A stretch of 63,250 nt of DNA, the filler included. It is 6 parts of 6 records of this genome, joined end to end, with 100 filler letters (N's around TTAATTAATTAA, not from the genome) between each part and the next. Parts side by side here need not be neighbours in the genome. Positions count along the whole stretch, not along the records: positions 49,897 to 63,250 come from SRR31156797_4153; 5 more parts are not named here. One strand, 5' to 3'. This document shows positions 46,003 to 63,250 of this stretch, piece after piece. The notes beneath the pieces were generated by a model that ran no database searches, was not told where the DNA came from, and was given only the letters and a program-made list of their open reading frames with translations. Position 1 is the first letter of the stretch, and the number at the start of each line of letters is the position of its first letter. A program made the translations under genes and the position numbers.

Positions 46003-46021
46003 TACCCGAAAGGTTATTCAA

Positions 46022-47101: not shown

Positions 47102-47143
47102 GGTTGGGCAGGCATGGTTTACCCGCCCAACCGTGATTTTAAA

Positions 47144-47653
47144 TTAGAAGGGCTTACCGTTGTTCACCATAAACTTACCGCCTGCACGGGCAGTAGATGA
47201 ATCGGCTCTGATCATATGACCACCGGCAATAAGGGCGTTCTGGAGCATTGGGTCATCGGAGGTCCACTGAATTACAGCATAACCCACAATGCATTTCTGA
47301 GCACCGGCGGTGGTTGCGAAGAAGAAGCGTGAAGAGTGCGCGGGCAATTCAAATTCACCTGTGTTAGTAGCTATGGTCGTCCAGTTAGTGGTGCCGCCCG
47401 CGCAAACCCTACCGTAGTTGCTAATGTCATTGCCCTGATCATCATAAAGCGTGATCTTGCAGCGTACGGGGACTCCAGTTATGTTTGTAACTGTTAAGTG
47501 TGGAGTTTCAGCATTGTTTGCTCCGACGTAATACCATGTAAAGTCAGGGACAAGAGCCTTTCCCTGTGCATTAAAACAATCCTGTGCAGCAGCGCTTCCG
47601 CAAAAAATTAAAATTAAGGCCATTGCTACGAATGCTTTTGTCATTGTTTTCAT
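47144..47653 (-). CDS. Exported hypothetical protein
   Basis: Signal peptide ending AAA-Q; beta-rich; no family recognised. Confidence 0.65.
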   Translation of the reverse strand: MKTMTKAFVAMALILIFCGSAAAQDCFNAQGKALVPDFTWYYVGANNAETPHLTVTNITGVPVRCKITLYDDQGNDISNYGRVCAGGTTNWTTIATNTGEFELPAHSSRFFFATTAGAQKCIVGYAVIQWTSDDPMLQNALIAGGHMIRADSSTARAGGKFMVNNGKPF

Positions 47654-47859
47654 TAAATAGCTCCTAGATTATAAATAATGTATGATACGGGCTGTAATTT
47701 AAAGTTTATAATTTTGTCAATCCCTTAGGTATACAAGGGCTGCATGCAGTCTGATTTTTATTAAAACCCAGCTTATGTTATAATGTCATACTAGGTTCTT
47801 TTTGACATATACTGATCCGTCGTGGTGATGGATGATGGCTTTTTGTCTGTGAGCAACGG

Positions 47860-49017
47860 GTGGTACGTGTGCGTTATTTTTTAGTTTTATTTCTTCTTGC
47901 TACGCTTTGCGTTTCTATTTTTACCTTTCCAACGACAGCCTTTTGCGAGAGGGCCGATGAATTGACTGAAGGGATGGAGGTTGTTTTCCTCAATCCCGGC
48001 AAGTCCGATCCGAGTGATCCTACTGGCGGATTCTGGCGGGAGGTCAGTTCTTTTATGCAGGCCGCAGCAGATGATCTGGGTATCGATCTGGAAATTGTTT
48101 ACGCCGAGCGTAATCATGTCTTAATGGTTAAAGAGGCAGAGAAAGTACTTAGTCGCGAACATCTTCCCGATTATCTGATCGTGGTCAACGAGAAACTGGC
48201 AGCAGGGAAGATCATTGCCCAAGCTGATGCAAAAGGAGTTAAGGTTTTCAACCTCTTGCTGGACTTCTATGGCGATCAGGCCAAGGTATTGGGGACTCCC
48301 AGAAAAAAGTATAAAAACTGGATCGGCGGTCTGGTTCCTGATAACCGTTGGGCCGGATATAATTTGGCAAAGAAGTTGATAGAAAAGGCGGCAGAGCAAG
48401 GGATTGCAGAAAAAGACGTCAAGCTTCTGCCTATTGCCGGAGATTATGTCACGCAGGCAACTTTGCTCAGGAATGAAGGCTTAGGCTATGCCCGTGCTGA
48501 TTTTTTTGACGCTAAAATTCTTCCTGAGATTCATTGTTTATGGCGTAAGGATAAGGCCTTTGATCTGGTAACCAAATTTTTAATACGTGATCCAAGTGTC
48601 AATGTTATCTGGACCGCTAATGATCCCATGGCCCTTGGTGCTATTGAGGGGATAAAAAAGAATGGCCTGATTCCGGGTAAGGATGTTCTGGTGGGCGGAA
48701 TAAACTGGGATAAGCCTGCGCTTGAGGCTATAAGGGATGGCTCTCTAGCTCTATCTGTAGGCGGCCATTTTATGACCGGCGGCTGGGGGCTGGTCATGCT
48801 TTACGATTACCATCACGGTTATGATTTCATTGGAAAAGCCGGACCGCTGATCAGAAAGAGGATTTTCTGTGTCGTTGATGATCGCAATGTGGAGCGTTTT
48901 CTAAATAGATTCGGTTCCCGTGACTGGTCAAAGGTTGATTTTAGAAAATTCTCAAAAGCATACAATAATAAAGATTTCGATTATGATTTTTCTGTAAAAG
49001 CCTTGTTGAGAAACTAG
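47860..49017 (+). CDS. Periplasmic solute-binding protein (type I, sugar-binding-like), orphan
   Basis: Signal peptide; FLNPG, FW..V..FMQAAA, IWTANDPMALGA, SVGGHF. Confidence 0.8.
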   Translation: MVRVRYFLVLFLLATLCVSIFTFPTTAFCERADELTEGMEVVFLNPGKSDPSDPTGGFWREVSSFMQAAADDLGIDLEIVYAERNHVLMVKEAEKVLSREHLPDYLIVVNEKLAAGKIIAQADAKGVKVFNLLLDFYGDQAKVLGTPRKKYKNWIGGLVPDNRWAGYNLAKKLIEKAAEQGIAEKDVKLLPIAGDYVTQATLLRNEGLGYARADFFDAKILPEIHCLWRKDKAFDLVTKFLIRDPSVNVIWTANDPMALGAIEGIKKNGLIPGKDVLVGGINWDKPALEAIRDGSLALSVGGHFMTGGWGLVMLYDYHHGYDFIGKAGPLIRKRIFCVVDDRNVERFLNRFGSRDWSKVDFRKFSKAYNNKDFDYDFSVKALLRN

Positions 49018-49108
49018 TCTGTTATTATTTATTTCGGATGTTTGTTGTCTGAAATTTTCGGTTGTGCTATCGGTTAATCAACTAAAATTAAATCAATGGA
49101 GTTGAACC

Positions 49109-49624
49109 ATGAATGAAAGAACTGGAATAATCACTTTTCAGGGCAATCCCCTGACTCTTCTTGGCAATGAAATTAAAGTGGGCGACAAAGCACCCGAGTT
49201 CAACGTGACAGACAATGGGCTAGCTCCCAAAGCTCTGGCTGATTTTGCAGGCAATGTGCTGATCATCAGTGCTGTGCCCTCCCTTGACACCCCGGTCTGC
49301 GACATGGAGACCCGCAGGTTCAACAACGAGGCCGCATCCCTCGGTGATGATATCAAAATTCTGACCCTGTCCATGGATCTCCCTTTTGCTCAGGCCCGCT
49401 GGTGCGGTGCTGCTGGAGTTGAAGCTGTACAGACTCTTTCCGACTACAAAGAGTCCTCTTTCGGTGACGCTTACGGTGTGCTGATCAAAGAACTTCGCCT
49501 CTTGAGCCGTGCTGTTTTTGTGGTCGATAAGTCCGGCGCTGTGCAATACGTGCAGTACGTGAATGAAATCACTGAGGAACCGGACTACGATGCCGCTCTC
49601 GCTGCTGCTAAGAAGCTGGTTTAG
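49109..49624 (+). CDS. tpx: Thiol peroxidase
   Basis: VPSLDTPVC, SMDLPFAQARWC, EPDY. Confidence 0.96.
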   Translation: MNERTGIITFQGNPLTLLGNEIKVGDKAPEFNVTDNGLAPKALADFAGNVLIISAVPSLDTPVCDMETRRFNNEAASLGDDIKILTLSMDLPFAQARWCGAAGVEAVQTLSDYKESSFGDAYGVLIKELRLLSRAVFVVDKSGAVQYVQYVNEITEEPDYDAALAAAKKLV

Positions 49625-49643
49625 AACGTAAAAAAAGAATCCC

Positions 49644-49682
49644 AAAAGCCTCTTTCCGTAATATCGGGGGAGGCTTTTTCTC
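49644..49682 (+). terminator. Probable intrinsic terminator after tpx
   Basis: AAAAGCCTCT/GGAGGCTTTT hairpin. Confidence 0.6.
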
Positions 49683-49739
49683 TTAGCTTTAGACTTGACC
49701 ACAAAATATGTACTGATATAAAGACTACTTCAACCAAAA

Positions 49740-49796
49740 GCCAACGTAGCTCAGTCGGTAGAGCAGCTGATTCGTAACCAGCAGGCCGTCGGTTCA
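49740..49796 (+). tRNA. tRNA-Thr(CGT), 3' truncated by contig end
   Basis: GCCAACG-TA-GCTCAGTCGGTAGAGC D-arm, anticodon loop TTCGTAA, start of the T-arm GTCGGTTCA. Confidence 0.88.
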
Positions 49797-49896: not shown

Positions 49897-50049
49897 GTAT
49901 GAAGCATTGCTTAAATCGGGCTGTTTTCGGTGAAGGTAGGCATGAATCCAGTAAGCAATAGAATGCCCCATGTCTTGAATGGCCTGGTGAGCTCCGTCCC
50001 AATCTCCCTGCTTGTCCAGTTCCAGTGCTTTTAAAAATTTATCTTTCAT
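49897..50049 (-). CDS. Small conserved hypothetical protein (3' truncated)
   Basis: GDWDGAH..Q...WIHAYLHRK..D.SNA.Y pattern. Confidence 0.7.
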
Positions 50050-50138
50050 TTCTGCCCTTTTTAGTAATCTTACGTTTAAAAGTTTTCTATGTTGCTTCGG
50101 CTTTGTATTGCATTGAAAAGTTGTTAGTGGAAACAGAA

Positions 50139-51470
50139 TTAACCAATTTGTTTTGATTCAGGCAAATTCCATTCTTCTACCATTTTAATTTCAAGTTGTT
50201 CCAGTTCGGAAAGTACCGGTTCGTAAATGGATTTTGTAACCGGAATGTGTACACCGGTATCTTTAATTTTTTCTTCCAAGATCAACTTTACTGCAATAGC
50301 CGCAGGAAGTGCAACCGTTCGGGCTATCGAAGTATCTTCATCTGTAGCAAAATCGAGCAGCCTCGACTGAACCACTTCTTTTTCGCCATTTGCATTTTCA
50401 TAAAGAAAAGAGTGAAGCAGAATTACCATATCCCGGGAACCCTCTGGCAGCATCATTTTATCCAGCATTAAATTTGTTGTTAAATCAAATGTCGTTCCCT
50501 CTTTTATTTGAATACGCTCTTTACTGAAAAGTCCAAGCCAGTCCATGGCAGCAATTGCCGGGCTGTTTAGTGTTATTCCAAGCCGTTCAGCTACTTTTTC
50601 TTTTACGTTGGCCGGGTAAACACCAATGTTTTCTGCAATAATCTCTTTGTATGTTTTTCCTTCAAATTTTCGTTTTTCGTACGAAACCATTCCCAGTGCT
50701 TTTATGGCATCCATACTTTCGCACCACTTCTGATATCTAAAAGTTCCGCGATACATGGTTTCGATGTTTGGTAAATTATATATATCGATATACGCCAGCG
50801 AATCGCGGTTTGGGTACACTTCCATTGTGCCAACTTCGGGGAATTCGATTTGTAATGGATTTTTAAAAAGGTTTTCTGTCGGGATATTTACAATCTTTTT
50901 GTTTTTCAGGAATTTTGCACCGTTATTTCCGGCAATTATTACTCCCTTTGGCGACCACGAGAATTTATATTTAAACGGATTGTCTGCTTCTTCAGGAGCT
51001 GCAAGTGCTCCGCAGAGTGAATAGAATTCTTTTATTTTTCCTCCATTATCCTGTATTTTATTGATAATCCGCATGGCTGTCATGTGATCAAATCCGGGAT
51101 CGACACCAATTTCATTTAGAACAATTGTTCCTGCCTTTTTTGCTTTTGCATCCAGCTTTTTCATTTCTTCCGAAACGTAAGAAGTGGTAACCATGTGTTT
51201 TTTGTTTTTTATACAAAGCTGGGCAACAGACACGTGGAGTGCAAATGGGAGGAGACTAACAGTGAGATCGTGAGTGGCAATTAATTTATCAAGAGCCTCT
51301 AAATCATCGGTAGTCCAGGAAACTGTTTTCCCGTTTTTCCTTCCCCGAATTAATTTATCTGCTTTTGCAACTGTTCGGCTTGCGATAGTAATATTATAGT
51401 TTTGATTAAGAAGATAATCGATTATTGGTTTGGCAACCATTCCGGCTCCTAATATAAGTACTTCCTTCAT
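50139..51470 (-). CDS. Saccharopine dehydrogenase (Lys9-like, glutamate-forming family)
   Basis: LGAGMV, SLLP, TTSY, NEIGVDPGFDHM, YKFSWSP, YPNRDS, RGTFRY, IARTVALP. Confidence 0.9.
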   Translation of the reverse strand: MKEVLILGAGMVAKPIIDYLLNQNYNITIASRTVAKADKLIRGRKNGKTVSWTTDDLEALDKLIATHDLTVSLLPFALHVSVAQLCIKNKKHMVTTSYVSEEMKKLDAKAKKAGTIVLNEIGVDPGFDHMTAMRIINKIQDNGGKIKEFYSLCGALAAPEEADNPFKYKFSWSPKGVIIAGNNGAKFLKNKKIVNIPTENLFKNPLQIEFPEVGTMEVYPNRDSLAYIDIYNLPNIETMYRGTFRYQKWCESMDAIKALGMVSYEKRKFEGKTYKEIIAENIGVYPANVKEKVAERLGITLNSPAIAAMDWLGLFSKERIQIKEGTTFDLTTNLMLDKMMLPEGSRDMVILLHSFLYENANGEKEVVQSRLLDFATDEDTSIARTVALPAAIAVKLILEEKIKDTGVHIPVTKSIYEPVLSELEQLEIKMVEEWNLPESKQIG

Positions 51471-51917
51471 TTCTGAACTTTTAATTGTTTAATTTATAAA
51501 CAGAAAAAATATGAAGAATGTTCTTTTTTCTGTATTCGTTTTATATCTGCTTAAAGTTGGTGAATTTTTTTTTAACAAAAGATGATCTTTTAAATTAAAA
51601 AAATACACACAAAAGTCATAGTTAGAAAAGAGAAATATTTCTATTTTGGATTCATGATACAATCGTATTTATGTCCGGTTTTTTTTTATCAGGGTATGCC
51701 TGAATGCCTTGACGAAGATACGGTTTCACATTAGCTGTTACCTCAGCTTTTCTATTCCAGCCACTCTTATTGGCGAATACATCTTTTTTAAATCATTTTT
51801 TGCTTTTTGATCGTAATGTCAGTAAGGGAATGTCTAAATGAATTATGCCAATTGGGCTAATGTTCTGTTGTTGGATTTTTTTGATATCACTGTATACTTT
51901 TTAAATAAGAAATTAAC

Positions 51918-53483
51918 ATGAAGAGTAAGATTGATCATATCGATATTGTTGAACTGATGCATTCATATGATTTTGATCCGGAAACTATTGATACCATTCA
52001 AACCGAAAAATTACTTCCCCCGGCATTAATAAACCGCCTTCATAAAGCATTTCCCCAATATTCAGGTTTTACAAGAAAAGGCAATGCTTTGTTTAATGGA
52101 AATACACATTATACAGGTATAAATGGTTTTAGGAAGATTATTGAAATTCTTAAAGAGAAGGGGATTATTATAAAAGATGTAAGAGAGCGGGAGTTCTTTA
52201 TCGAGGTTTACCGGTTTATGGCTACTAAACACATATTAAATAGCATCGATTGGGAAAACTTTGAAAAGGATCCAATTTATCATCTTATTTTTCCTCAACC
52301 TGACATGATAAATAAAGCGGATGTTCAACAATACCTTAAAGCACCGAATAAACAGGAACGGGAAAAAGCAGTAGAGGCTTATCGGTATAAAACCAATCCA
52401 CACGATGGAAAACAAAAACTGAATAAACCATTCTTTATAAATAACAAAGGTAAACTGGAGATTTTGGAAGGTAGCCAACATAAATATCCACCCATCAAAT
52501 TAATTCTCGATAGTGGTACGCAAAATTGTTTTGCTTTTTGCACTTATTGTTTCAGACATGCTCAGGTGCGGGGCGATGAGGATATGTTTGTTCAGCGCGA
52601 TATAAAGCAGGTTCATAATTACCTGAAGAATCATAAAGAAATAAGTGATATTCTTATTACCGGAGGAGATGGGGGATACATATCGTATGAACGATTAAAA
52701 GAATATGTCACTCCGTTGATGGATGATAAGGAATTGCTTCATATTCGAACTGTACGCATCGGGTCAAGAGGTATTACTTTTCATCCTGAATATTTTTTGA
52801 ACAGCAAATTCAAAAAGATTTTAGAATTGCTTAAAAATGTTGTGGATTGTGGTATTCAGGTGGTTTGGATGTCGCACTTTTCTACACCCCGTGAGTTGAT
52901 GAATCCCGGTGCAGTGGCAGCCATAAGACGATTGAAAAATTACGGACTTACTTTGAAAAGCCAGAGTCCGATTATGAACAGGATTAGCCTCTATAAAAAT
53001 GAAATGGGGAAAGTTGATGTCGATCTCTCGGCGCAAAACTGGATTGATTTGGGCAATGTACTGGCAATGCTTGGTGTAGGTTTCCATTCCATGTATTGCG
53101 CAAGACCTACCGGAGAACATCATTATTTTACTGCTCCGCTGGCCGATATTGTTAAAATCCATAATAAGGTTTTTCGTTCACTGGCATCAATTAACCGCCC
53201 CTCGAGGTATATAACAATGACTTCTTCGGCAGGGAAAACTTCATTGATGGGCACTATCGAAATAAATGGAGATAAAGTTTTTGTGCTGAAATTTAACGAG
53301 GCCAGAAATATGACCTGGATGGATCAGGTATATTTTGCAGAATATGATGAACATGAAACTGTTATTGAAAAATTAAAACCATACAAAGCCGGAAAATATT
53401 TTTATGAAGACGAACTGGCAGAGATAGAAAACAGGCTGGAAGAAGCTTTAAAAAAGGAAACTTTAAAAGCTGAATCAAGATGA
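51918..53483 (+). CDS. KamA-family radical SAM/PLP 2,3-aminomutase, substrate unknown
   Basis: QHKYP, CFAFCTYCFR, LITGGD, RIGSR, SHF..PREL, QSP; candidate PLP Lys in SSAGK. Confidence 0.88.
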   Translation: MKSKIDHIDIVELMHSYDFDPETIDTIQTEKLLPPALINRLHKAFPQYSGFTRKGNALFNGNTHYTGINGFRKIIEILKEKGIIIKDVREREFFIEVYRFMATKHILNSIDWENFEKDPIYHLIFPQPDMINKADVQQYLKAPNKQEREKAVEAYRYKTNPHDGKQKLNKPFFINNKGKLEILEGSQHKYPPIKLILDSGTQNCFAFCTYCFRHAQVRGDEDMFVQRDIKQVHNYLKNHKEISDILITGGDGGYISYERLKEYVTPLMDDKELLHIRTVRIGSRGITFHPEYFLNSKFKKILELLKNVVDCGIQVVWMSHFSTPRELMNPGAVAAIRRLKNYGLTLKSQSPIMNRISLYKNEMGKVDVDLSAQNWIDLGNVLAMLGVGFHSMYCARPTGEHHYFTAPLADIVKIHNKVFRSLASINRPSRYITMTSSAGKTSLMGTIEINGDKVFVLKFNEARNMTWMDQVYFAEYDEHETVIEKLKPYKAGKYFYEDELAEIENRLEEALKKETLKAESR

Positions 53484-54202
53484 TAAATAAGATAATAAAA
53501 TCGACAAAAGAGGCAGTTGAAGACATATTTGATGGGGCAACGATAATGATTTCAGGATTTGGTGAGGCTGGTAGTCCGGTTGAATTAATTCATGCATTGG
53601 TCGACCAGGGGGCAAAAAACCTGACAATTGTGAGCAATAACGCAGGTAGCGGGCATGTTGGGCTGGCAGCACTTATTGAAAACCGCCAGGTAAGCAAAAT
53701 AATTTGCTCCTTTCCGCGAACTGCCATTTCAGTCGTTTTTCCCAATTTGTATAAAAAAGGTGAAATTGAATTGGAATTGGTCCCACAAGGAACGCTGGCA
53801 GAAAGAATACGCGCAGCCGGAGCAGGTATCCCCGCATTTTATACACCTACTTCAGTAAATACCTTATTGGCTGAAGGGAAAGAACAACGCGAATTTAGAG
53901 GAATGAAATATGTTATGGAAAAAGCAATTTATGCCGATTTTGCTCTTGTTAAATGTGCAACTGCAGATGAATATGGAAATTTACTATATAACAAAACCGC
54001 TCGCAATTTTGGACCGGTAATGTGTATGGCAGCAAGAACCACAATTGTTCAGGCAAAAACAGTGGTTGATAAAGGGAAAATCAATCCTGAACATGTTGTT
54101 ACACCGGGCATTTTTGTACATAAGGTTGTTGAGGTTTCTAATCCCTCAAATGAGTCGAAGTTAGTAGCTGATAATATTAAATATCATGGTGTCAAATACT
54201 GA
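53480..54202 (+). CDS. pcaI: 3-oxoadipate CoA-transferase-like subunit A
   Basis: DGATIMISGFG.AG.P.ELI, SNNAG.G..GLAAL, IICSFPR, PQGTLAERIRA, ARNFGP; ATGA overlap with the upstream gene. Confidence 0.85.
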   Translation: MINKIIKSTKEAVEDIFDGATIMISGFGEAGSPVELIHALVDQGAKNLTIVSNNAGSGHVGLAALIENRQVSKIICSFPRTAISVVFPNLYKKGEIELELVPQGTLAERIRAAGAGIPAFYTPTSVNTLLAEGKEQREFRGMKYVMEKAIYADFALVKCATADEYGNLLYNKTARNFGPVMCMAARTTIVQAKTVVDKGKINPEHVVTPGIFVHKVVEVSNPSNESKLVADNIKYHGVKY

Positions 54203-54842
54203 AAAAATAGGGTGGAATATGGGTGAAATGGCACAAAAAGTGGCTCTGGATATTCCCGATGGTACTTATGTAAACTTAGGCATTGGTATTCCTGAAATAG
54301 TAGCTGATTACATTCCTGAAGGACGTGAAGTTATCTATCATACGGAGAATGGACTATTGGGAATGGGAAAAGTGGCTGAAAGTTGGAAACAGGATCCCGA
54401 ACTGGTAAATGCAGGTAAAAAATATGTAACTGCAATACCAGGAGCCGCTTACTTTCACCATGCCGACAGTTTTGCCATGATAAGAGGCGGCCATATTGAT
54501 ATCTGTGTTTTAGGTGCCTACCAGGTTTCGGAAGAAGGAGATTTGGCAAACTGGTCGACAGGAAATCCGGAAGATATTCCGGCAGTGGGGGGAGCAATGG
54601 ATTTGGTTGCCGGTGTAAAAACCATTTACGTAATTACAAAACATAGTACTAAAACCGGGAAGCCAAAAATCGTAAAATCCTGCACTTATCCTATAACAGG
54701 AAAAAATGTTGTTAGCCGAATTTATACAAATCTGGCAATAATTGATGTTAAGAGTAAAAGACTGGTTGTGTGGGAATTAGCGCCGGGCGTAACATTTGAA
54801 TTTCTTCAGCAAAGAACAGGGGCAAAATTGCATCAGGAATAA
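54186..54842 (+). CDS. pcaJ: 3-oxoadipate CoA-transferase-like subunit B
   Basis: YVNLGIGIP, HTENG (catalytic Glu), SFAMIRGGH, DLANW, PAVGGAMDL. Confidence 0.85.
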   Translation: MVSNTEKIGWNMGEMAQKVALDIPDGTYVNLGIGIPEIVADYIPEGREVIYHTENGLLGMGKVAESWKQDPELVNAGKKYVTAIPGAAYFHHADSFAMIRGGHIDICVLGAYQVSEEGDLANWSTGNPEDIPAVGGAMDLVAGVKTIYVITKHSTKTGKPKIVKSCTYPITGKNVVSRIYTNLAIIDVKSKRLVVWELAPGVTFEFLQQRTGAKLHQE

Positions 54843-54859
54843 AACCTTAAACTCATTTT

Positions 54860-56194
54860 ATGCCGCAAAAAAGTAATAGTGAAAAGCTTTATAAAAAGGC
54901 TCAGAAAGTAATTCCGGGAGGAGTGAGCAGGAATACGGTATTTAGAAAACCATTCCCAAACTATACGAATTCTGCATCAGGATGTTATATTACAGATGTT
55001 GAAGGAACGGTGAGGATCGATTTTGCGAATAACATGGCAGCATTAATTCATGGTCATTCCTTTCCTCCGGTAATCGATGCTGTAATAGAACAATTGAGAA
55101 AAGGAACAGCATACACCCTGGCCTCGGAAATTGAACTCAATTTTGCTAAAATGTTAATTGAAAGAGTACCGGGTTTCGAACGCATTCGTTTTATGAATTC
55201 GGGTACTGAAGCAGTAATGGCCATGATCAAAGCATCAAGGGCGTATACCGGAAAATCGAAAATTGCAAAAGCCGAAGGATCATATCATGGTACTTACGAT
55301 TTTGCAGAAGTAAGCCAGACTGCCGATCCTTCCAATTGGGGGGAAATAAATAATCCAATTAGCGTTCCGTTAGCGTTTGGAACACCTCCTTCGGTTTCAA
55401 AAGACGTTATTATTTATCCGTATAACAATATTGAAAATACGATATCCATTTTGAATAAGCAGGCCGATAAAATTGCTTGTGTGATTGTCGATCCTGTGCC
55501 GCACAGAGTTGGGTTGATGCCCGGGGAAAGTAATTTTATTGAAGCTGTTTATGATTGGACCAGAAAAAATGATGTCTTATTGGTTTTTGATGAGGTTATC
55601 ACTTTCAGGGTAAATTATGCCGGGGCACAACAAAACTACAATGTGAAACCAGATTTAACTTCGCTGGGAAAAATTATAGGAGGGGGTTTCCCTGTTGGTG
55701 CTGTTGCCGGACGCGAAGAAGTTATGCGTGTTTTTGATCCTCATGAAAAAAAATTGCTATTACCTCATTCCGGTACATTTTCTGCCAACCCAATAACCAT
55801 GACTGCAGGTTACCAGGCAATGAAACATTATAACTTAAAAACAGTAAAAAAAATAAATGCGCTGACAAAAGTTGCTGTAAATCAGATATATGAAGTTATA
55901 AGGCTGGTTGATGTTCCTGTTTCAATTTGTGGTGCCGGTTCAATGTTTAGGATACATTTGAAACCAACTCCTCCAACCGCCTACCGGGAAGCATATCAGG
56001 ATGTTGAGGCTAAAAAAGTAATAAGCAACTTACTTGATTTTATGTATTATAAAGAAAATATCCTCATGATTAATACTTTTTCATGCATGCTTTCGACTGT
56101 TATGACACAAAAGGAAATTGACCGACTATCAGAAGGATTATTTAACGCCTTTAGTGCATTAAAACCAATGATTAATAAATTAAACAAGGTGTAA
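54860..56194 (+). CDS. Class III PLP aminotransferase (GSA-aminomutase/beta-transaminase-like)
   Basis: IPGGVSR, HGH, RFMNSGTEA, GSYHG, FDEVITFR, GKIIGGGFP, HSGTFSANP. Confidence 0.9.
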   Translation: MPQKSNSEKLYKKAQKVIPGGVSRNTVFRKPFPNYTNSASGCYITDVEGTVRIDFANNMAALIHGHSFPPVIDAVIEQLRKGTAYTLASEIELNFAKMLIERVPGFERIRFMNSGTEAVMAMIKASRAYTGKSKIAKAEGSYHGTYDFAEVSQTADPSNWGEINNPISVPLAFGTPPSVSKDVIIYPYNNIENTISILNKQADKIACVIVDPVPHRVGLMPGESNFIEAVYDWTRKNDVLLVFDEVITFRVNYAGAQQNYNVKPDLTSLGKIIGGGFPVGAVAGREEVMRVFDPHEKKLLLPHSGTFSANPITMTAGYQAMKHYNLKTVKKINALTKVAVNQIYEVIRLVDVPVSICGAGSMFRIHLKPTPPTAYREAYQDVEAKKVISNLLDFMYYKENILMINTFSCMLSTVMTQKEIDRLSEGLFNAFSALKPMINKLNKV

Positions 56195-56196
56195 AT

Positions 56197-57399
56197 ATGA
56201 AAGAAGTTTTTATATGCGATGCTATTCGCACTCCGGTAGGAAAATATGGCGGCAGTTTGTCATCTGTTCGTGCAGACGATTTGGCGGCAATTCCGTTAAA
56301 AACTCTTCTTAAAAGAAATCCTGAAATCGATCCTGCTGAAATTGACGATGTTATTTTGGGATGTACTAATCAGGCTGGCGAAGATAATCGCAATATAGCC
56401 CGAATGGCTTTATTATTAGCTGGATTTCCTGAATCTGTGCCGGGAGTTACTGTGAATCGTCTATGTTCATCGGGAATGGAGGCGGTTGCAATTGCGGCAA
56501 GGGCTATTAAAGCAGGAGAAGCCGAACTAATCGTGGCTGGAGGAGCAGAAAGCATGTCAAGAGCACCAATGGTAATGTCAAAATCCACAAAAGCTTTTTC
56601 AAGAAATACAGAATTTTATGATTCAACCATTGGCTGGCGTTTTGTAAACAAGGAATTTCAAAGGCAGTTTGGAACCGACCCCCTAATAAAAACTGCAGAA
56701 AACCTGGCAGACGAATACAAAATAAGTCGTGAAGATCAGGATCGTTTTGCACACAATAGTCAACTTAAAACAGCTGAAGCACAAAAAAGTGGTAAGCTGT
56801 CAAAAGAAATTGTTCCGGTTTCTGTTTTCCAAAAAAAGTTTGAACCGGTTTTGATAGAAAAGGATGAACATCCCAGGCTTACTTCTCTGGAGAAGCTGGC
56901 ATCGTTAAAACCTGTACTGGGAGAAAGATGTACTGTAACAGCTGGAAATGCATCGGGAATTAACGATGGGGCTGCAGGAATGATAGTGGCTTCGGAGCGA
57001 GCTGTTAAAAAGTTTAATCTTATTCCCAAAGTCCGAATTCTTGGTGCTCAGGCCGCCGGAGTGCCTCCGCGTATAATGGGTATCGGGCCGGTTCCTGCAA
57101 CCAATAAATTATTAAAACGATTGGGAATGCGGTTAGAACAAATGGACATTATTGAATTGAACGAAGCTTTTGCAGCTCAATCATTGGCATGCATCCGTGA
57201 ATTTCGTCTTGATGATAATGATGAAAGGATAAATCCACTTGGTGGAGCAATCGCACTTGGGCATCCGCTTGGAATGTCGGGGGCAAGGCTGCTTACCACT
57301 GCTTTTTATCAGTTGCAAAATAGAAATGCAAAGTACGCACTTTGCACCATGTGCATTGGTGTGGGCCAGGGACTATCAATGGTCTTGGAAAAAGTATAG
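56197..57399 (+). CDS. pcaF: 3-oxoadipyl-CoA thiolase (PcaF/PaaJ type)
   Basis: [65 protein letters not shown]. Confidence 0.9.
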
Positions 57400-57447
57400 A
57401 TATAAAAATTTACAATTCAGATAAAATAACTTAAACATTACAATAAT

Positions 57448-58989
57448 ATGAAAACTGGAATTTCAAAAGATTTAAAATCACTGGGCATTAAAAATGTAAA
57501 TTATGGTGTATGTACCGGAACTTTATGGAAGGAAACAAAAGGAAATTTAGTAGAGTCGTTTTCACCCTCCGATGGAGAATTAATTGCAGGAGTGCACCAG
57601 GCAACTGCCTACGATTATCAGGAAGTAATTGAAACAGCCAAATCAGCTTTTAAAACATGGAGAATGATTCCTGCTCCAAAACGGGGAGAAATTGTTCGGC
57701 AAATTGGAAATGAATTACGAAAATTCAAAGAGCCACTGGGTAAACTGGTTTCATACGAAATGGGAAAGATACTACAGGAAGGATTGGGCGAAGTTCAGGA
57801 GATGATTGATATTTGCGATTTTGCAGTTGGGCAGTCGCGTCAACTGTACGGTTTTACTATGCACTCGGAACGCGAAAAGCACCGCATGTACGATCAATAC
57901 CATCCACTGGGAATTGTTGGCGTAGTATCGGCTTTTAATTTTCCGGTTGCTGTTTGGGCATGGAATGCCATGATTGCTTTGGTAGCCGGCGATGTTGTCG
58001 TTTGGAAACCTTCATCGAAAGTGTATTTATGTGCCGTGGCAGTGCATAAAATTGTTGCGAATGTTTTAAAGGATAATAATGTTCCCGAAGGCGTGCTTAA
58101 CCTCGTTGCTGCCGATTCAAAACAATTGGGCGATCTGCTTTTTAGCGATAAAAATATTCCGCTGGTATCTTTCACCGGATCAACCCGAATTGGAAAAAAA
58201 GTGGGGCGCCTGGTTGGAGAACGACTTGGGAAATCGATTCTTGAACTGGGAGGAAACAATGCTATAATTATTACACCAAATGCCGATTTGGAAATGGCAT
58301 TACGAGCTGTTGTATTTGGAGCCGTTGGCACTTGCGGACAACGTTGTACTTCTACACGAAGAATAATTGTTCACGATTCCGTGTATGATAAATTCAAAGA
58401 GAAATTATTATCGGCATACAAACAACTTCCTATTGGACATGCTCTCGATGCAAAAACATTGGTTGGTCCGCTGGTCGATAAATATGCAGTTCAGAATTAT
58501 CTCGATGCCATTGAAAAAGTAAAAAGTGAAGGTGGGAAAATTATTGTTGGAGGAGAAGTTTTATCAGGAAATGGATTTGAATCGGGATGTTTCGTAACCC
58601 CCTCAATTGCTGAAGTAGAAAATCATCATGAAATTGTTCAGGACGAAACTTTCGCTCCTTTACTTTATATGATAAAATATTCGGTTTTAGAGGAAGCAAT
58701 TCAATTGCATAACGATGTTCCTCAGGGATTATCTTCGGCAGTTTTTTCAACCAATATGCTGGAAACCGAGAAATTCCTCTCACACGAAGGTTCCGATTGC
58801 GGTATTGCCAATGTAAATATCGGAACTTCGGGAGCAGAAATTGGAGGTGCTTTTGGTGGTGAGAAAGAAACAGGTGGTGGCCGTGAATCGGGTTCCGATG
58901 CCTGGAAAGCATACATGCGACGACAAACAAATACAATAAATTACAGCACTGAATTGCCACTGGCGCAGGGAATTGAGTTTAAGGTTTAA
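57448..58989 (+). CDS. ALDH7-type 2-aminoadipate semialdehyde / P6C dehydrogenase
   Basis: PAPKRGEIVRQIG, GEVQEMIDICDFAVGQSRQLYG, SAFNFPVAVW, LELGGNNA, GQRCT, GGRESGSDAWK.YMRR, LPLAQGI.F. Confidence 0.92.
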   Translation: MKTGISKDLKSLGIKNVNYGVCTGTLWKETKGNLVESFSPSDGELIAGVHQATAYDYQEVIETAKSAFKTWRMIPAPKRGEIVRQIGNELRKFKEPLGKLVSYEMGKILQEGLGEVQEMIDICDFAVGQSRQLYGFTMHSEREKHRMYDQYHPLGIVGVVSAFNFPVAVWAWNAMIALVAGDVVVWKPSSKVYLCAVAVHKIVANVLKDNNVPEGVLNLVAADSKQLGDLLFSDKNIPLVSFTGSTRIGKKVGRLVGERLGKSILELGGNNAIIITPNADLEMALRAVVFGAVGTCGQRCTSTRRIIVHDSVYDKFKEKLLSAYKQLPIGHALDAKTLVGPLVDKYAVQNYLDAIEKVKSEGGKIIVGGEVLSGNGFESGCFVTPSIAEVENHHEIVQDETFAPLLYMIKYSVLEEAIQLHNDVPQGLSSAVFSTNMLETEKFLSHEGSDCGIANVNIGTSGAEIGGAFGGEKETGGGRESGSDAWKAYMRRQTNTINYSTELPLAQGIEFKV

Positions 58990-59052
58990 AGCCCAAAGCT
59001 CCAAGCCCAAAGCTAAACGTAAAAAAGTTCAATTTGGTAATTATTTTTTAGT

Positions 59053-60387
59053 ATGAAACAAATTCTGATTTTTGGTGCTGGTCGGTCCAGTAAGGTATTA
59101 ATTCAGTATTTAACTGAAAATGCTGAGCAATTCGATTGGCATATTACTGTTCTTGATGTTGGAAAATTTGAAAAGAAAAATATTCAAAGGTTCAATTATA
59201 AAAGTGTAGATGTAAACGACGAGCCGGCGCGGGATGAAGAAGTTAAGAATGCCGATTTGGTAATTTCAATGCTTCCTGCCAGGTTCCACTTGCTTGTGGC
59301 TGAATCTTGTCTGAAATTTTCAAAAAACCTGCTTACAGCATCGTACGAAACGGCAGAAATGAAAAGACTGGAAACAGAGGTGAAAGATAAAGGATTGTTC
59401 TTTTTAAATGAATGTGGTCTTGACCCGGGCCTCGATCATATGTCGGCAATGAAAATTATAAACCAAATTAAAAACAATGGGAATGAACTTTTAAGTTTCG
59501 AATCGTTTACCGGTGGGTTGGTGGCTCCCGAGTCAGATAATAATCCGTGGCATTACAAATTTAGCTGGAACCCCCGAAATGTAGTTCTTGCCGGAAAAGA
59601 CGGACCGGCAAAATTTATTCAGAATGGTAAATTTAAATACATTCCTTACAACCGGCTATTCAGACGAACAGAATTGATTGAAATAGAGAATTACGGATTA
59701 TTTGAAGGGTATGCCAATCGCAATTCTTTAAAATATATTCAGCAATATAATTTACAGGGTATTCCAACTATTTACCGGGGTACTTTGCGGCGACCCGGAT
59801 TTTCACGCGCATGGAATGTTTTTGTTCAGCTGGGGGCAACCGACGATTCTTATTTCATGGAAAATGTAGAGAATATGACGTACCGTGAGTTTATAAATTC
59901 ATTCTTATATTATCATCCTTCCGATTCAGTTGAGTTGAAATTATACCATTACATGCACATCGATCAGGATTCAGATATTATTCAGAAACTGAAATGGCTG
60001 GGTATTTTTGATAATACAAAAATTGGATTAAAACGAGCTACTCCGGCTCAGATTCTGGAACATATCCTGAAACAAAAATGGCAACTTCTGCCTGATGATA
60101 AAGACATGATTGTAATGTGGCATAAATTTAATTACCGTGAAAAATCTTCAGGAATTGAAAAAGAGCTAACCAGTTCGCTGGTAGTTAAAGGAGAAAACAG
60201 AGAAAATACTGCCATGGCAAAAACGGTTGGACTTCCATTGGCAATTGCAGCTAAATTGGTGCTTACCCGAAAAATAAATTTGACAGGAATGTACATTCCA
60301 ACATCACACAAAATTTATGCGCCTATTTTGAATGAACTTCAAACTTTTGGAATTCAATTCTCTGAAAAAGAACAGGTAGTGCATTAA
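59053..60387 (+). CDS. Saccharopine dehydrogenase (second paralog)
   Basis: FGAGRSS, ISMLP, TASY, NECGLDPGLDHM, YKFSWNP, YANRNS, RGTLR, MAKTVGLP. Confidence 0.9.
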   Translation: MKQILIFGAGRSSKVLIQYLTENAEQFDWHITVLDVGKFEKKNIQRFNYKSVDVNDEPARDEEVKNADLVISMLPARFHLLVAESCLKFSKNLLTASYETAEMKRLETEVKDKGLFFLNECGLDPGLDHMSAMKIINQIKNNGNELLSFESFTGGLVAPESDNNPWHYKFSWNPRNVVLAGKDGPAKFIQNGKFKYIPYNRLFRRTELIEIENYGLFEGYANRNSLKYIQQYNLQGIPTIYRGTLRRPGFSRAWNVFVQLGATDDSYFMENVENMTYREFINSFLYYHPSDSVELKLYHYMHIDQDSDIIQKLKWLGIFDNTKIGLKRATPAQILEHILKQKWQLLPDDKDMIVMWHKFNYREKSSGIEKELTSSLVVKGENRENTAMAKTVGLPLAIAAKLVLTRKINLTGMYIPTSHKIYAPILNELQTFGIQFSEKEQVVH

Positions 60388-60400
60388 TTTTATATTGGTT

Positions 60401-60440
60401 AAGGATTTCATCTGTAAGCTGACGGATGACATCCTTTGTT
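60401..60440 (+). terminator. Hairpin terminating the catabolic operon
   Basis: AAGGATTTCATCTGT/ACGGATGACATCCTT stem followed by a T-rich tract. Confidence 0.6.
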
Positions 60441-60514
60441 TTTCCCGACTTTCTCACATTTTGTTTTCTCCCTATTTCATCTATCTTTGGTTTTATCATT
60501 CTAAGCCAATTATC

Positions 60515-61786
60515 ATGAACCGGAGATTTTTACTTTTTACACTTGTAATTTTTTTTACCGTATTTAATTCCTTTGCACAAGACGCGGAGAACTGGACTCA
60601 TTTTCGCAGCACCGCAATGGATGGACATGCACAGGTAGAAAAAGCCCCATTACAGTGGAACGATTCAACGAATATAGTTTGGAAAACTCCGGTAAAAGGA
60701 TTGGGATGGTCTTCTCCGGTAATTTTTGAAAATCAAATTTGGATTACTTCAGCAAGTAAAGAGGGGAATGAGTTTTATACGCTGTGTTTCGATTTGGAAA
60801 CGGGAGAATTATTAGATGATAAAACAATATTTACCAGCGAAGAGCCGCAGCGAATACACGGAACAAATTCGTATGCCACTCCAACGCCTTGTATCGAAGA
60901 AGGTTTTGTATATGTTCATTACGGAACTTTTGGAACAGCTTGTATAAATACCAATAATTTTGAAGTGGTTTGGAAACGCGAAGACATGCCTTGTGATCAT
61001 ATGCAGGGGCCGGCTTCTTCTCTTATTCTTCATGAAAATATGTTAATTGTTCATTTGGAGGGAACTGAAAATCCGTATGTTGCAGCACTGGATAAACGCA
61101 CCGGTGAAACCATTTGGAAAAGTGTTCGTCCGGCTGATGTTTATGATCCGCTGGAACCGGTTTTCCGAAAATCATATCAAACTCCAATTGTAATAAATGT
61201 GGGGGGCCGGGAACTGTTAATTAGTAACTCTGCCTTTTTGTGTTTTGCTCACGATGTAAATACCGGCGAAGTGGTTTGGACAATTGAATATGGATACGAT
61301 TCAACCGTGAGTCAGCCACTGTTTTGGAACGGACTTGTTTATGTAAATTCAGGTTGGATTTTTCTGGATGGAAAACCGAATTTTACCAGGCAATATGCAG
61401 TTGATCCAACCGGGACAGGCGATATAACAAAAACACATGTAAAATGGATGTATGAAGATGAGGTTCCGCAAATTCCAACTCCGGTTATTGTTGAAGGAAA
61501 AATGTATATGGTTCACGATCGAGGAATGGTAACCTGTTTGGATGCAACAACCGGCAATGTTATCTGGAAAGAAGAATTAAAAGGGAACTTTAACGCTTCA
61601 CCCATTTATGCTGCCGGAAATATCTATTTCATAAACGTAAAAGGTTATTGCACCATAATAAAACCGGGAGATTCTTTTCAAAAAGTAGCTGAAAACGATA
61701 TCGGTGAAACTGTAAAAGCGGTGCCTGTTTTTGTTCGCGATAAAATGATTTTACGAACGGATAAGAATTTGTACTTAATAAAATAA
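60515..61786 (+). CDS. Exported PQQ-like (BamB-type) beta-propeller protein
   Basis: Signal peptide from ATG 60515 (TATCTTTG -7 element at 60482); ENW..FR, GWSSPV, YATPTP and repeated TG..W motifs. Confidence 0.85.
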   Translation: MNRRFLLFTLVIFFTVFNSFAQDAENWTHFRSTAMDGHAQVEKAPLQWNDSTNIVWKTPVKGLGWSSPVIFENQIWITSASKEGNEFYTLCFDLETGELLDDKTIFTSEEPQRIHGTNSYATPTPCIEEGFVYVHYGTFGTACINTNNFEVVWKREDMPCDHMQGPASSLILHENMLIVHLEGTENPYVAALDKRTGETIWKSVRPADVYDPLEPVFRKSYQTPIVINVGGRELLISNSAFLCFAHDVNTGEVVWTIEYGYDSTVSQPLFWNGLVYVNSGWIFLDGKPNFTRQYAVDPTGTGDITKTHVKWMYEDEVPQIPTPVIVEGKMYMVHDRGMVTCLDATTGNVIWKEELKGNFNASPIYAAGNIYFINVKGYCTIIKPGDSFQKVAENDIGETVKAVPVFVRDKMILRTDKNLYLIK

Positions 61787-61865
61787 AAAAACCGGTTTCT
61801 TTCTGTCAAAAAGGATTCTTTTTGTTTACCCATATTTTATTCGGGTGATTTTCTGATAAAAATAT

Positions 61866-61906
61866 GGATGTCATCTTTCCAAACGGAGAATAGAAAGATG
61901 ACATCC
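61866..61906. repeat. 14-bp-stem inverted repeat GGATGTCATCTTTC/GAAAGATGACATCC
   Basis: Perfect stem with a 13-nt loop, intergenic. Confidence 0.75.
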
Positions 61907-62022
61907 GTTGAAAGCTTCCAAACGTAATTTCTTTTATTCCTGCTGATTTACTCTCGACATTAAATTTCGTTGTTAAAAGTGCGATTTAATTGTCTTTTCA
62001 TTTTTCTAAGTCAAAACTTTTT

Positions 62023-62030
62023 TACTTTTG
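62023..62030 (+). promoter_or_regulatory. Bacteroidetes-type -7 element (TACTTTTG) for typA
   Basis: TAnnTTTG match about 100 nt upstream of the ATG. Confidence 0.5.
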
Positions 62031-62131
62031 CGCGCCGGTTTGCCGGAGTTTTTGCTAATCTGCCTGAGATTCTTGCATTTAGGAAAACTTTTTATGGCGA
62101 AATTGGTTTAAGATTTTAGTAAAATTAGAAA

Positions 62132-63250
62132 ATGACAGAAATTAGAAATATTGCGATTATCGCTCACGTCGACCATGGAAAAACAACACTGGTTGACCGT
62201 ATTTTGCATCAGGCAAATTTATTTAGGGAAAACCAGGAGGTACAGGAGTTGTTCCTCGACAATAATGAACTGGAACGCGAACGCGGAATTACCATTTTGT
62301 CGAAAAATGTATCTGTTCGTTACAAAGAAACAAAAATTAATATTATTGATACTCCCGGTCACTCCGATTTCGGCGGTGAAGTAGAGCGTGTTTTAAACAT
62401 GGCAAATGGAGTTTTACTTATTGTTGATGCATTTGAAGGCCCCATGCCACAAACCCGGTTTGTGCTGCAAAAAGCCATCGAACTGGGATTGAAACCAATT
62501 GTAGTTGTTAATAAAGTCGATAAGCCAAATTGTACTCCCGATATTGCTCAGGAAAAAGTTTTTGACTTAATGTTTAGTCTCGAAGCAACTGAAGACCAGT
62601 TGGATTTTCCAACAGTCTTTGGATCATCAAAAGTGGGTTGGATGGGAGCCGACTGGAAAGAGCCAACCACAGATGTTACCTATTTACTGGATGCGATTTT
62701 GGAACATATTCCGGCATCAAAGCCAATCGATGGTTCGGTACAAATGCGAATTACTTCGCTCGACTATTCCTCTTACACCGGGCGAATTGCCGTAGGAAAA
62801 GTAACCCGGGGAGAACTGGTTCCGGGAACCCAGGTGTCGCTTGTAAAACGCGACGGGAAAGTGGTTAAAACAACAGCTAAAGAGATTTACCTTTTTGAAG
62901 GTTTAGGAAAAGAAAAAACTAAATCGCCGGTACCATGTGGCGAAATTTGTGCAGTTTTAGGATTGGATGGTTTTGATATTGGAGACACAATTGCCGATGG
63001 TGAGGTGCCCGAAGGATTAACACCAATTCGTGTCGATGAACCAACCATGAGCATGATGTTTGTAGCAAATAATTCGCCGTTTTTTGGCAAAGACGGAAAA
63101 TTTGTAACATCACGTCAGTTGCGCGACAGGCTGTTTAAAGAAATAGAAAAAAACCTGGCATTGCGCGTTGAAGAGACAAATTCAGCCGATTCATTTCTGG
63201 TATATGGAAGGGGAATCCTTCACCTTTCAATATTAATTGAAACCATGCGT
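62132..63250 (+). CDS. typA: Translational GTPase TypA/BipA (3' end runs off the window)
   Basis: Not in the ORF track. Manual translation: MTEIRNIAIIAHVDHGKTTLVD, ERERGITILSKN, DTPGHSDFGGEVER, EGPMPQTRFVL, NKVD, GRGILHLSILIETMR. Confidence 0.97.
   Translation, partial: MTEIRNIAIIAHVDHGKTTLVDRILHQANLFRENQEVQELFLDNNELERERGITILSKNVSVRYKETKINIIDTPGHSDFGGEVERVLNMANGVLLIVDAFEGPMPQTRFVLQKAIELGLKPIVVVNKVDKPNCTPDIAQEKVFDLMFSLEATEDQLDFPTVFGSSKVGWMGADWKEPTTDVTYLLDAILEHIPASKPIDGSVQMRITSLDYSSYTGRIAVGKVTRGELVPGTQVSLVKRDGKVVKTTAKEIYLFEGLGKEKTKSPVPCGEICAVLGLDGFDIGDTIADGEVPEGLTPIRVDEPTMSMMFVANNSPFFGKDGKFVTSRQLRDRLFKEIEKNLALRVEETNSADSFLVYGRGILHLSILIETMR

Follow-up and report, generated by a model that had tools for sequence, protein, structure and literature searches.

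What is the substrate of a radical enzyme that resembles lysine 2,3-aminomutase (LAM), when its gene stands in one operon with enzymes of the lower beta-ketoadipate pathway and of lysine degradation? The question is raised by positions 50139-60387 of a 63,250-nucleotide stretch of DNA, hereafter the window, in which six parts of six records of one genome are joined with 100 filler letters between each part and the next (positions 49,897 to 63,250 come from SRR31156797_4153). An initial annotation, made from the letters alone, had proposed a new lysine catabolic pathway here, in which a radical S-adenosylmethionine (SAM) aminomutase turns 2-aminoadipate into 3-aminoadipate, and the resulting 3-oxoadipate is handed to PcaI, PcaJ and PcaF. 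On the comparisons presented below, we give a probability of roughly 60% to the central part of this proposal: five linked genes would convert 2-aminoadipate, via 3-aminoadipate and 3-oxoadipate, to succinyl-coenzyme A (CoA) and acetyl-CoA. The open reading frames (ORFs) form a divergent pair of units, with one minus-strand gene (50139-51470) followed by seven plus-strand genes (51918-60387):

50139..51470, minus strand: saccharopine dehydrogenase (SDH) paralogue of the LYS9/AASS-SDH type, 443 amino acids (PF16653, 252 bits; PF03435, 93 bits)
51471..51917, no strand: divergent intergenic region of 447 bp, with presumed promoters and operators (delimited by the ORF coordinates)
51918..53483, plus strand: KamA-like radical SAM/pyridoxal phosphate (PLP) aminomutase, 521 amino acids, proposed 2-aminoadipate 2,3-aminomutase (CxxxCxxC motif, fold, hhalign)
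53480..54202, plus strand: 3-oxoacid CoA-transferase subunit A, PcaI/ScoA family (TIGR02429)
54186..54842, plus strand: 3-oxoacid CoA-transferase subunit B, PcaJ/ScoB family (TIGR02428)
54860..56194, plus strand: class III aminotransferase of the HemL/beta-transaminase subgroup, proposed 3-aminoadipate or 3-aminoadipyl-CoA transaminase (PF00202)
56197..57399, plus strand: 3-oxoadipyl-CoA thiolase PcaF (TIGR02430, NF006551)
57448..58989, plus strand: L-piperideine-6-carboxylate (P6C)/2-aminoadipate semialdehyde dehydrogenase, ALDH7 type (NF050084)
59053..60387, plus strand: SDH of the glutamate-forming type, 444 amino acids (PF16653, 253 bits)

Along the plus-strand run, consecutive genes are joined by a 4-nt overlap and a 17-nt overlap and then separated by gaps of 17, 2, 48 and 63 nt. 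The layout, overlaps and 2-nt gap claimed by the initial annotation agree exactly with these ORF coordinates. Its statement that genes for aromatic ring cleavage and for classical lysine fermentation are absent was borne out as well: neither aromatic ring-cleavage or lactone-processing families nor those of kamDE, kdd, kce and kal were among the Pfam matches of the 62 window ORFs, for which one scan displayed 25 of 49 families.

As a check on its proposal, the initial annotation had asked whether the gene of the 51918 protein stays linked to pcaIJF and the class III aminotransferase gene in other genomes, and this linkage was found. Among 319 candidate stretches from contigs of one genome per species, 305 encode a relative of the radical SAM protein, and the best 80 of these 305 were scored for gene content by tblastn with the window proteins. 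The order radical SAM protein, PcaI, PcaJ, aminotransferase, PcaF was complete, on one strand, in 67 of the 80 loci, all from other species. In 11 of the remaining 13 the contig ends before the missing genes would be reached, and two are variants: in L015 the P6C dehydrogenase gene comes directly after the radical SAM gene, and in L073 the radical SAM and aminotransferase genes are all that is present. Gene by gene, PcaI follows the radical SAM gene in 75 loci, PcaJ and the aminotransferase are present in 72 each, and PcaF is present in 67. The Bacteroidota loci are labelled Prolixibacteraceae, Marinilabiliales, Lentimicrobiaceae, Salinivirgaceae and Rikenellaceae; other labels are Ignavibacteria/Melioribacteraceae, Chlorobi, Acidobacteria, Edwardsbacteria, and metagenome-assembled genomes (MAGs) assigned to Deltaproteobacteria and Clostridia. 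The five-gene linkage is thus conserved far beyond chance. At E<=1e-3, 1308 of 8000 scored candidates from metagenome collections are relatives of the radical SAM protein itself. The best 120 are 64-76% identical to it, about 520 amino acids long, and either unnamed or called 'L-lysine 2,3-aminomutase'. Clustering at 50% identity left one full-length representative (57% identity), and the next relatives, of 400-470 amino acids, are at 37% or less. The ESM Atlas offered, besides the cluster of the protein itself, which carries no name, generic 'lysine 2,3-aminomutase' clusters and nothing else.

To which family does the 51918 protein belong? It scores 72.8 bits on TIGR00238 (cut-off 199.2), 70.1 bits on the LAM equivalog TIGR03820 (cut-off 525.4) and 59.3 bits on the glutamate 2,3-aminomutase equivalog TIGR04368 (cut-off 650), the last being lower than its scores on the LAM models. 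All 56 members of the family alignment match TIGR00238 at E<=1e-5. An AlphaFold2 model built from this 56-sequence alignment reached a predicted local distance difference test score (pLDDT) of 93.2 and a predicted template modelling score (pTM) of 0.93. Its top Foldseek match was 2a5h, the KamA LAM of Clostridium subterminale, at E 1.5e-16, with the runner-up at 5.8e-5. VIA-align superposed model residues 53-466 on residues 3-390 of 2a5h chain B with Z 30.7 and a root-mean-square deviation of 2.6 Å over 323 aligned residues, and every other radical SAM structure gave Z 12.5 or less. An hhalign comparison of the new family with true LAMs gave a probability of 99.9 across residues 83-446. The label 'KamA-family' of the initial annotation therefore holds for fold and profile kinship, and needs qualifying for the hidden Markov model (HMM) scores, all of which lie under their cut-offs: as judged from the modelled structure and the profile alignment, the protein is a divergent KamA relative. 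It shares with KamA LAM a nearly whole-chain fold, the CxxxCxxC motif, an Arg two residues past the third Cys, a GGD motif and the PLP lysine, but it is only about 20% identical and carries about 100 extra N-terminal residues.

The active site is where the two proteins part. Residue numbers of 2a5h were read off a HMMER alignment of the true LAM from Maribellus. The cluster cysteines C204, C208 and C211, which form the CxxxCxxC motif, correspond to C125, C129 and C132 of 2a5h and are kept; across the 56 aligned sequences they hardly vary. R213 corresponds to R134 and K440 to K337, both kept, and K440 is also nearly invariant in the 56 sequences. Two positions are changed: R396 takes the place of D293 and T433 that of D330. 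R213, R396, T433, K440 and the cluster cysteines are all invariant in 12 family members from several phyla, including Acidobacteria- and Chlorobiaceae-labelled ones. In LAM, R134 is said to bind the alpha-carboxylate and K337 the PLP, while D293 and D330 reportedly hold the epsilon-ammonium group of lysine. An Asp-to-Arg change at this distal binding site indicates a substrate with a distal carboxylate, and the remodelled site, with Arg396 and Thr433, thus points to an acidic substrate. Glutamate 2,3-aminomutase is a KamA-family enzyme that has the lysine-binding aspartates replaced to suit an acidic side chain; it reportedly has Lys and Asn at the D293 and D330 positions, which differs from the Arg and Thr seen here. 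A true glutamate 2,3-aminomutase for this comparison was sought in a sample of 301 genomes, and none of the 301 (a tally that takes in the unpublished genomes G172 and G069) has a protein over the TIGR04368 cut-off; the matches are LAMs with Asp/Asp. The kept cofactor and carboxylate residues, taken with the modelled fold, suggest that the 51918 protein probably catalyses a radical 1,2-amino shift like LAM.

The thiolase at the end of the core scores 649 bits on TIGR02430 (cut-off 597) and 671 bits on NF006551 (cut-off 605); it matches 6pca, the beta-ketoadipyl-CoA thiolase of Pseudomonas putida, with 530 bits and thiolase 8gqh with 544, compared to about 310-330 bits for acetoacetyl-CoA thiolases. 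By these family models it is a PcaF-type enzyme and a member of the equivalog. The CoA-transferase subunits, which make up a two-subunit 3-oxoacid CoA-transferase of family I, also pass their models (PcaI, TIGR02429, 351.4 bits, cut-off 128.5; PcaJ, TIGR02428, 294.3 bits, cut-off 243.55), and the best solved relative of PcaI is 3cdk, subunit A of the succinyl-CoA:3-ketoacid CoA-transferase (SCOT) of B. subtilis, at 225 bits. The transferase and thiolase thus resemble the lower beta-ketoadipate pathway, with succinyl-CoA and acetyl-CoA as the expected products. The difference lies upstream, since 3-oxoadipate is here proposed to come from an aminomutase and a transaminase, and in the hosts, which are mostly anaerobes.

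The aminotransferase that would connect the two ends belongs, by its family matches, to the HemL/beta-transaminase subgroup of class III. It scores 187 bits on PF00202, and its best NCBIfam model is hemL (TIGR00713), at 335.3 bits under a cut-off of 527.3. Its nearest solved relative is 6k8h at 363 bits, ahead of glutamate-1-semialdehyde aminomutases (about 210-220) and of the beta-Phe aminotransferase 4ao9 (184) and 2yku (175). The beta-amino-acid transaminases of Sphaerobacter (6k8h), Variovorax (4ao9) and Mesorhizobium (2yku) are its nearest solved aminotransferase relatives, and we know of none of them that acts on 3-aminoadipate or is encoded in such an operon. The protein of 6k8h, the omega-transaminase StoTA of Sphaerobacter thermophilus, acts on free aromatic, branched and aliphatic beta-amino acids and on a gamma-amino acid (PMC10589169). 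A second precedent is Kat, which Perret et al. (2011, PMC3149608) present as a HemL-like transaminase of 3-aminobutyryl-CoA in a variant of lysine fermentation. The likeness extends to a HemL-like class III aminotransferase beside a thiolase, a 3-amino to 3-oxo conversion and an occurrence in anaerobic Bacteroidetes and relatives; but Kat acts after kamA, kamDE, kdd and kce (PMC3149608), and none of those is linked to the core here. A counterpart of Kat was sought in three kamD-bearing Bacteroidia genomes, and these held no close relative of the aminotransferase, the best being 32% identical. Among the homologues of the aminotransferase, the best 120 are orthologues without exception. In the Bacteroidales MAG locus L022:12923-14271 the aminotransferase gene is in two ORFs, of 266 and 176 amino acids, which is a frameshift, a pseudogene or an assembly error.

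Where would 2-aminoadipate come from? The initial annotation had stated that saccharopine dehydrogenase and the ALDH7 enzyme produce it. Both proteins pass their models, the P6C dehydrogenase with 806.5 bits on NF050084 (cut-off 730). A lysine-ketoglutarate reductase (LKR) is needed too, however, and tblastn with the LKR of L003 found no canonical one (AlaDh_PNT type) in the window. AlaDh_PNT proteins are present elsewhere in five of five related genomes. What the window has instead is the second SDH-type protein upstream. Both SDH-type proteins carry the Sacchrp_dh_NADP and Sacchrp_dh_C domains, and they are 39% identical to one another. The upstream paralogue (50139-51470) matches the saccharopine reductase of Magnaporthe, 1e5l, with 301 bits and the SDH domain of human AASS with 254; the downstream SDH (59053-60387) matches the human domain (5l78) with 231 bits and 1e5l with 226. 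Lysine 6-dehydrogenase 3abi reached only 37 bits against the downstream and 45 bits against the upstream protein.

Two Sunxiuqinia loci, L003 and L006, have a different arrangement, in which a 403-residue AlaDh_PNT protein is encoded between the P6C dehydrogenase and SDH genes (L003:17224-18435, L006:17272-18477). Among solved structures it matches best the LKR domain of human AASS (147 bits) and yeast Lys1. With an LKR, an SDH and a P6C dehydrogenase, the operons of L003 and L006 encode a complete saccharopine pathway ending at 2-aminoadipate. The upstream SDH paralogue is missing from exactly these two LKR-bearing loci, and the window and Draconibacterium show the reverse pattern. By sequence, the swap looks like a non-orthologous displacement, in which the upstream SDH paralogue probably performs the LKR step in the window, and it supports the notion that the operon extension converts lysine to 2-aminoadipate. 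The likeness to the saccharopine pathway of animals and fungi (LKR and SDH of AASS, ALDH7A1) thus lies in the SDH-type proteins and the P6C dehydrogenase, and the differences are the SDH-type paralogue in place of a canonical LKR and the proposed fate of 2-aminoadipate, which would be 3-oxoadipate rather than 2-oxoadipate and glutaryl-CoA.

Taken together, these assignments suggest a closed chain: the lysine branch would end at a C6 acidic alpha-amino acid, and the core starts with an aminomutase predicted to take an acidic substrate and ends with a thiolase predicted to split a C6 dicarboxylate. In the window, lysine would enter through the SDH-type paralogue acting as LKR, then the SDH, then the P6C dehydrogenase, giving 2-aminoadipate. 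The aminomutase would act on L-2-aminoadipate, placing its amino group on C3 instead of C2 and so forming 3-aminoadipate, the aminotransferase would hand this group to a 2-oxo acid to leave 3-oxoadipate, PcaIJ would form 3-oxoadipyl-CoA with succinyl-CoA as donor, and PcaF would split the product into succinyl-CoA and acetyl-CoA. The CoA transfer might also come first, with transamination of 3-aminoadipyl-CoA in the manner of Kat on 3-aminobutyryl-CoA. We lean somewhat towards the free-acid order, favoured by L073, where the radical SAM and aminotransferase genes occur without a transferase, by StoTA as nearest solved relative and by the 3-oxoacid type of the transferase; the gene order, with PcaIJ before the aminotransferase, fits the CoA-ester order instead. 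The whole operon would carry lysine through to central metabolites with no need for oxygen, no decarboxylation step and no passage through glutaryl-CoA. We infer the substrate, the aminomutase and aminotransferase reactions, the CoA donor and the direction of flux from these family and active-site assignments. The wider proposition is that this is the first 2-aminoadipate 2,3-aminomutase, that the five genes form a mobile, oxygen-independent and carbon-conserving route in at least 305 anaerobic species, among them Bacteroidota, Ignavibacteria, Chlorobi and Acidobacteria, and that the Prolixibacteraceae have fused it to lysine genes with an SDH paralogue as LKR; the case for it seems to us evenly balanced.

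Several observations weigh against a 2-aminoadipate pathway, and more so against a lysine pathway. At the level of the enzyme, all KamA-family NCBIfam models stay under their cut-offs for the 51918 protein, and the equivalogs for EpmB and for the aminomutases of lysine, glutamate and arginine give scores below the 72.8 bits of TIGR00238. A paralogue of 450 amino acids with no metabolic context also has Arg at the D293 position, so that this Arg may be a trait of the clade and not a mark of specificity. Arg is also longer than Asp, and a shorter substrate such as glutamate could fit. The models passed by PcaIJ are at subfamily level and cover ScoAB, from which, when specific for acetoacetate, the pair cannot be told apart by means of these models. 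At the level of gene neighbourhoods, 24 of the 80 loci have P6C dehydrogenase after PcaF, 23 have the downstream SDH and 19 have the upstream one. Lysine genes are joined to the core in only 26 loci (two truncated ones included), all of Prolixibacteraceae type and labelled Draconibacterium, Sunxiuqinia, Mariniphaga, Tangfeifania, Maribellus, or Prolixibacteraceae or Bacteroidota MAG. In the other 54 the module stands alone. We scanned 127 of the 128 nearest-neighbour ORFs of these 54 loci with Pfam, leaving out one ORF of 2080 amino acids (L064:3307-9549), and no lysine gene, transporter or further enzyme recurred among the 127. The sole recurrent neighbour was a regulator of the HTH_3+Cupin_2 type, encoded directly upstream; it accounts for 15 of the 127 ORFs by Pfam and is seen in 19 of the 80 loci by clustering.

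Co-occurrence of the module with P6C dehydrogenase anywhere in the genome was considered as a source of support and rejected. The enzyme is over its cut-off in five of 15 non-Prolixibacteraceae carriers (G001, G013, G016, G017, G018), a sixth having a fragment at a contig end, as compared to 268 of 301 genomes at class level (a tally that takes in the unpublished genomes G414 and G500), and there is no signal in this. Most carriers checked are thus without an evident route from lysine to 2-aminoadipate, with the reservation that they are MAGs, whose incompleteness limits what an absent P6C dehydrogenase can mean. With lysine genes attached in one family only and P6C dehydrogenase in five of 15 other carriers, 'lysine pathway' is no general label for the module. 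We regard the initial proposal of a lysine catabolic pathway as partly supported. Its more specific proposal, the new 2-aminoadipate route, draws support from the apparently acidic-substrate active site, the PcaF equivalog, the beta-amino-acid transaminase relative and the coexisting true LAMs described below, the substrate being predicted from these.

The stand-alone module would suit an abundant substrate, which makes glutamate the main rival. The 51918 protein would then be a glutamate 2,3-aminomutase in a stand-alone glutamate fermentation via beta-glutamate and 3-oxoglutarate, ending either in malonyl-CoA and acetyl-CoA or, after decarboxylation to acetoacetate, in two acetyl-CoA formed by a PcaIJ/ScoAB-type transferase and the thiolase. 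A basic residue in place of D293, which is said to be a signature of glutamate 2,3-aminomutase too (Lys/Asn), fits this, as do the 54 loci where the module has at most a regulator for company, the shortage of P6C dehydrogenase among the carriers checked and the fact that the only model passed by PcaIJ covers acetoacetate transferases too. We nevertheless consider it unlikely. The thiolase passes the 3-oxoadipyl-CoA equivalog and is far closer to P. putida PcaF (530 bits) than to acetoacetyl-CoA thiolases (about 320); the aminomutase scores lower on the glutamate model than on LAM models; and malonyl-CoA decarboxylase does not recur among the 127 flanking ORFs. In addition, 24 loci have genes in the same operon that end at 2-aminoadipate, which would have no consumer there.

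A distal carboxylate would also be offered by another dicarboxylic alpha-amino acid, either 2-aminopimelate or the 2,6-diaminopimelate (DAP) of peptidoglycan, in which case 3-oxo-6-aminopimelyl-CoA would be thiolysed to acetyl-CoA and gamma-glutamyl-CoA. Carriers are labelled as sediment or digester-type anaerobes, peptidoglycan-recycling genes occur among the 127 flanking ORFs (AnmK three times, Mur ligase three times), and an Orn/DAP-decarboxylase-like gene (eight) and an M20 peptidase gene (12) lie upstream in Prolixibacteraceae loci. These counts are low, however, and the loci behind them are close relatives of one another, the scheme is conjecture throughout, and the operon is fused with saccharopine-pathway genes, not with dap genes. 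We know of no thiolase product such as gamma-glutamyl-CoA from a diaminopimelate route, and regard this alternative as improbable.

A second LAM, forming beta-lysine for conversion via 3-oxo-6-aminohexanoate to acetyl-CoA and 4-aminobutyryl-CoA, would match the LAM fold, the database name 'L-lysine 2,3-aminomutase' given to homologues and the HemL-like transaminase of the lysine fermentation variant (PMC3149608). Against it, both aspartates assigned to the epsilon-amino group are replaced, by Arg396 and Thr433, while eight LAM-like proteins of other genomes keep Asp/Asp in all cases. Five of five Prolixibacteraceae genomes also have a true LAM, which passes TIGR03820 with 764-774 bits, and because it coexists there, the 51918-type protein is not a redundant LAM. 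The known contexts of KamA LAM, with kamDE, kdd and kce, also differ from the PcaIJF operon, and the saccharopine genes and P6C dehydrogenase would be left unexplained; we hold this alternative to be very improbable. Equally improbable is that the operon runs in the biosynthetic direction, from succinyl-CoA and acetyl-CoA through 3-oxoadipate and 3-aminoadipate to 2-aminoadipate, or that the radical SAM protein is no aminomutase: in principle each of the thiolase, CoA-transferase, transaminase and aminomutase steps can run backwards, and the KamA models do stay under their cut-offs, but the attached ALDH7-type P6C dehydrogenase works oxidatively, the window Pfam matches and flank scans revealed no 2-aminoadipate-consuming biosynthetic genes nearby, and conservation extends to the lysine for PLP, the cysteines for the cluster and the arginine for the carboxylate.

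The initial annotation knew of no description of such a route, and in open-access papers and bioRxiv preprints we found none either. The same literature gave no description of 3-aminoadipate as a catabolic intermediate or of an aminoadipate aminomutase, with the reservation that subscription journals may differ. Of the four papers there that have the words '3-aminoadipic' or 'beta-aminoadipic', three deal, to judge by their titles, with dairy-goat feeding, metabolomics methods and meteorite chemistry, and the fourth uses the term a single time, within a cited title. Every enzyme family here is a known one, and the novelty lies in the predicted specificity, in the intermediate and in the architecture of the pathway. 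If the 2-aminoadipate assignment is true, the radical SAM 2,3-aminomutases would gain a fourth class of substrate besides lysine, glutamate and arginine, and 3-aminoadipate would gain a biological role. It would mean that lysine or 2-aminoadipate can be used anaerobically without the 2-oxoadipate dehydrogenase/glutaryl-CoA branch or a B12-dependent fermentation. It would also account for a family of more than 1300 metagenome sequences, widespread under the names 'hypothetical protein' or 'lysine 2,3-aminomutase', correct the annotation of the linked aminotransferase as 'glutamate-1-semialdehyde aminomutase', and supply enzymes for the production of adipate and nylon precursors, namely beta-amino and dicarboxylic acids with six carbons.

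The related genomes contain further genes that touch on lysine and KamA-like proteins. The lysine 5,6-aminomutase family PF09043 (kamD) was not found in Draconibacterium orientale (G006) and is present in three of the 301 genomes of the class sample, which speaks for no classical lysine fermentation in these bacteria. The true LAM gene of D. orientale (L092:9291-11454) is followed by a GNAT acetyltransferase gene and adjoins genes for a fused trehalose-6-phosphate synthase/phosphatase and a GH15 enzyme. We take the order of LAM and GNAT genes to be the ablA-ablB arrangement for the osmolyte N-acetyl-beta-lysine, and the whole looks like a compatible-solute locus for N-acetyl-beta-lysine and trehalose. 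The paralogue of 450 amino acids (L106:8620-9972, Draconibacterium sediminis) has Arg at the D293 and Ser at the D330 position, stands directly after mreB-mreC-(mreD)-pbp2-rodA and has homologues in four of five related genomes; the mreBCD-pbp2-rodA neighbourhood gave no functional hint. The same D. sediminis genome has an HGLS-family gene (2-oxoadipate dioxygenase/decarboxylase, PF07063, 106 bits) at L106:11785-12708, through which the carbon of 2-aminoadipate may have another, oxygen-dependent fate. A KamA-like ORF of a third kind, with 731-762 amino acids, scores 104-109 bits on the LAM model with its N-terminal part only, and is found at G006:C50:43364-44365, G007:C14:458748-459749 and G008:C1:1007648-1008652, about 5-6 kb from an AlaDh_PNT-type gene. 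In carriers L094, L096 and L097 an unlinked P6C dehydrogenase gene adjoins a gene for an ALDH-superfamily paralogue of 421-425 amino acids, which is 25-27% identical to P6C dehydrogenase and 58% identical between loci.

Within the window, an Rfam search across 51400-52000, riboswitches included, gave nothing at E<=1, a scan for sigma-70-type promoters in the region upstream of the operon stayed at chance level, and the scan of the operon for intergenic terminators found no convincing one. One more gene follows the operon:

60395..61786, plus strand: PQQ/BamB-like beta-propeller protein (PF13360, 72.5 bits)

It starts 8 nt past the last operon gene, and a homologue lies downstream in 17 of the 80 loci, all of Prolixibacteraceae type. 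We consider its product a conserved neighbour whose membership in the pathway is doubtful. Elsewhere in the window, two blocks of about 12 kb (10000-22000 and 37000-49700) have about 50% G+C, compared to 33-40% in the remainder. The first encodes an acyl-CoA dehydrogenase, a TetR protein, two SDRs, a DUF362 protein, a 3-hydroxyacyl-CoA dehydrogenase and a thiolase, together with DUF2804, LarA-N and ADP-ribosylglycohydrolase proteins. In the second are genes for a molybdenum hydroxylase, for MoCF/DUF364 proteins and for a molybdate-type ABC transporter, and a phage-integrase+TOBE fusion ORF at 45923-47101. Both look like acquired islands, or may reflect a chimeric assembly. At the right edge of the second block, positions 49740-49794 hold a tRNA-like match of 55 nt (32.4 bits, gathering score 29); ARAGORN found no tRNA at this position, and the stretch may be the remnant of an attachment site.

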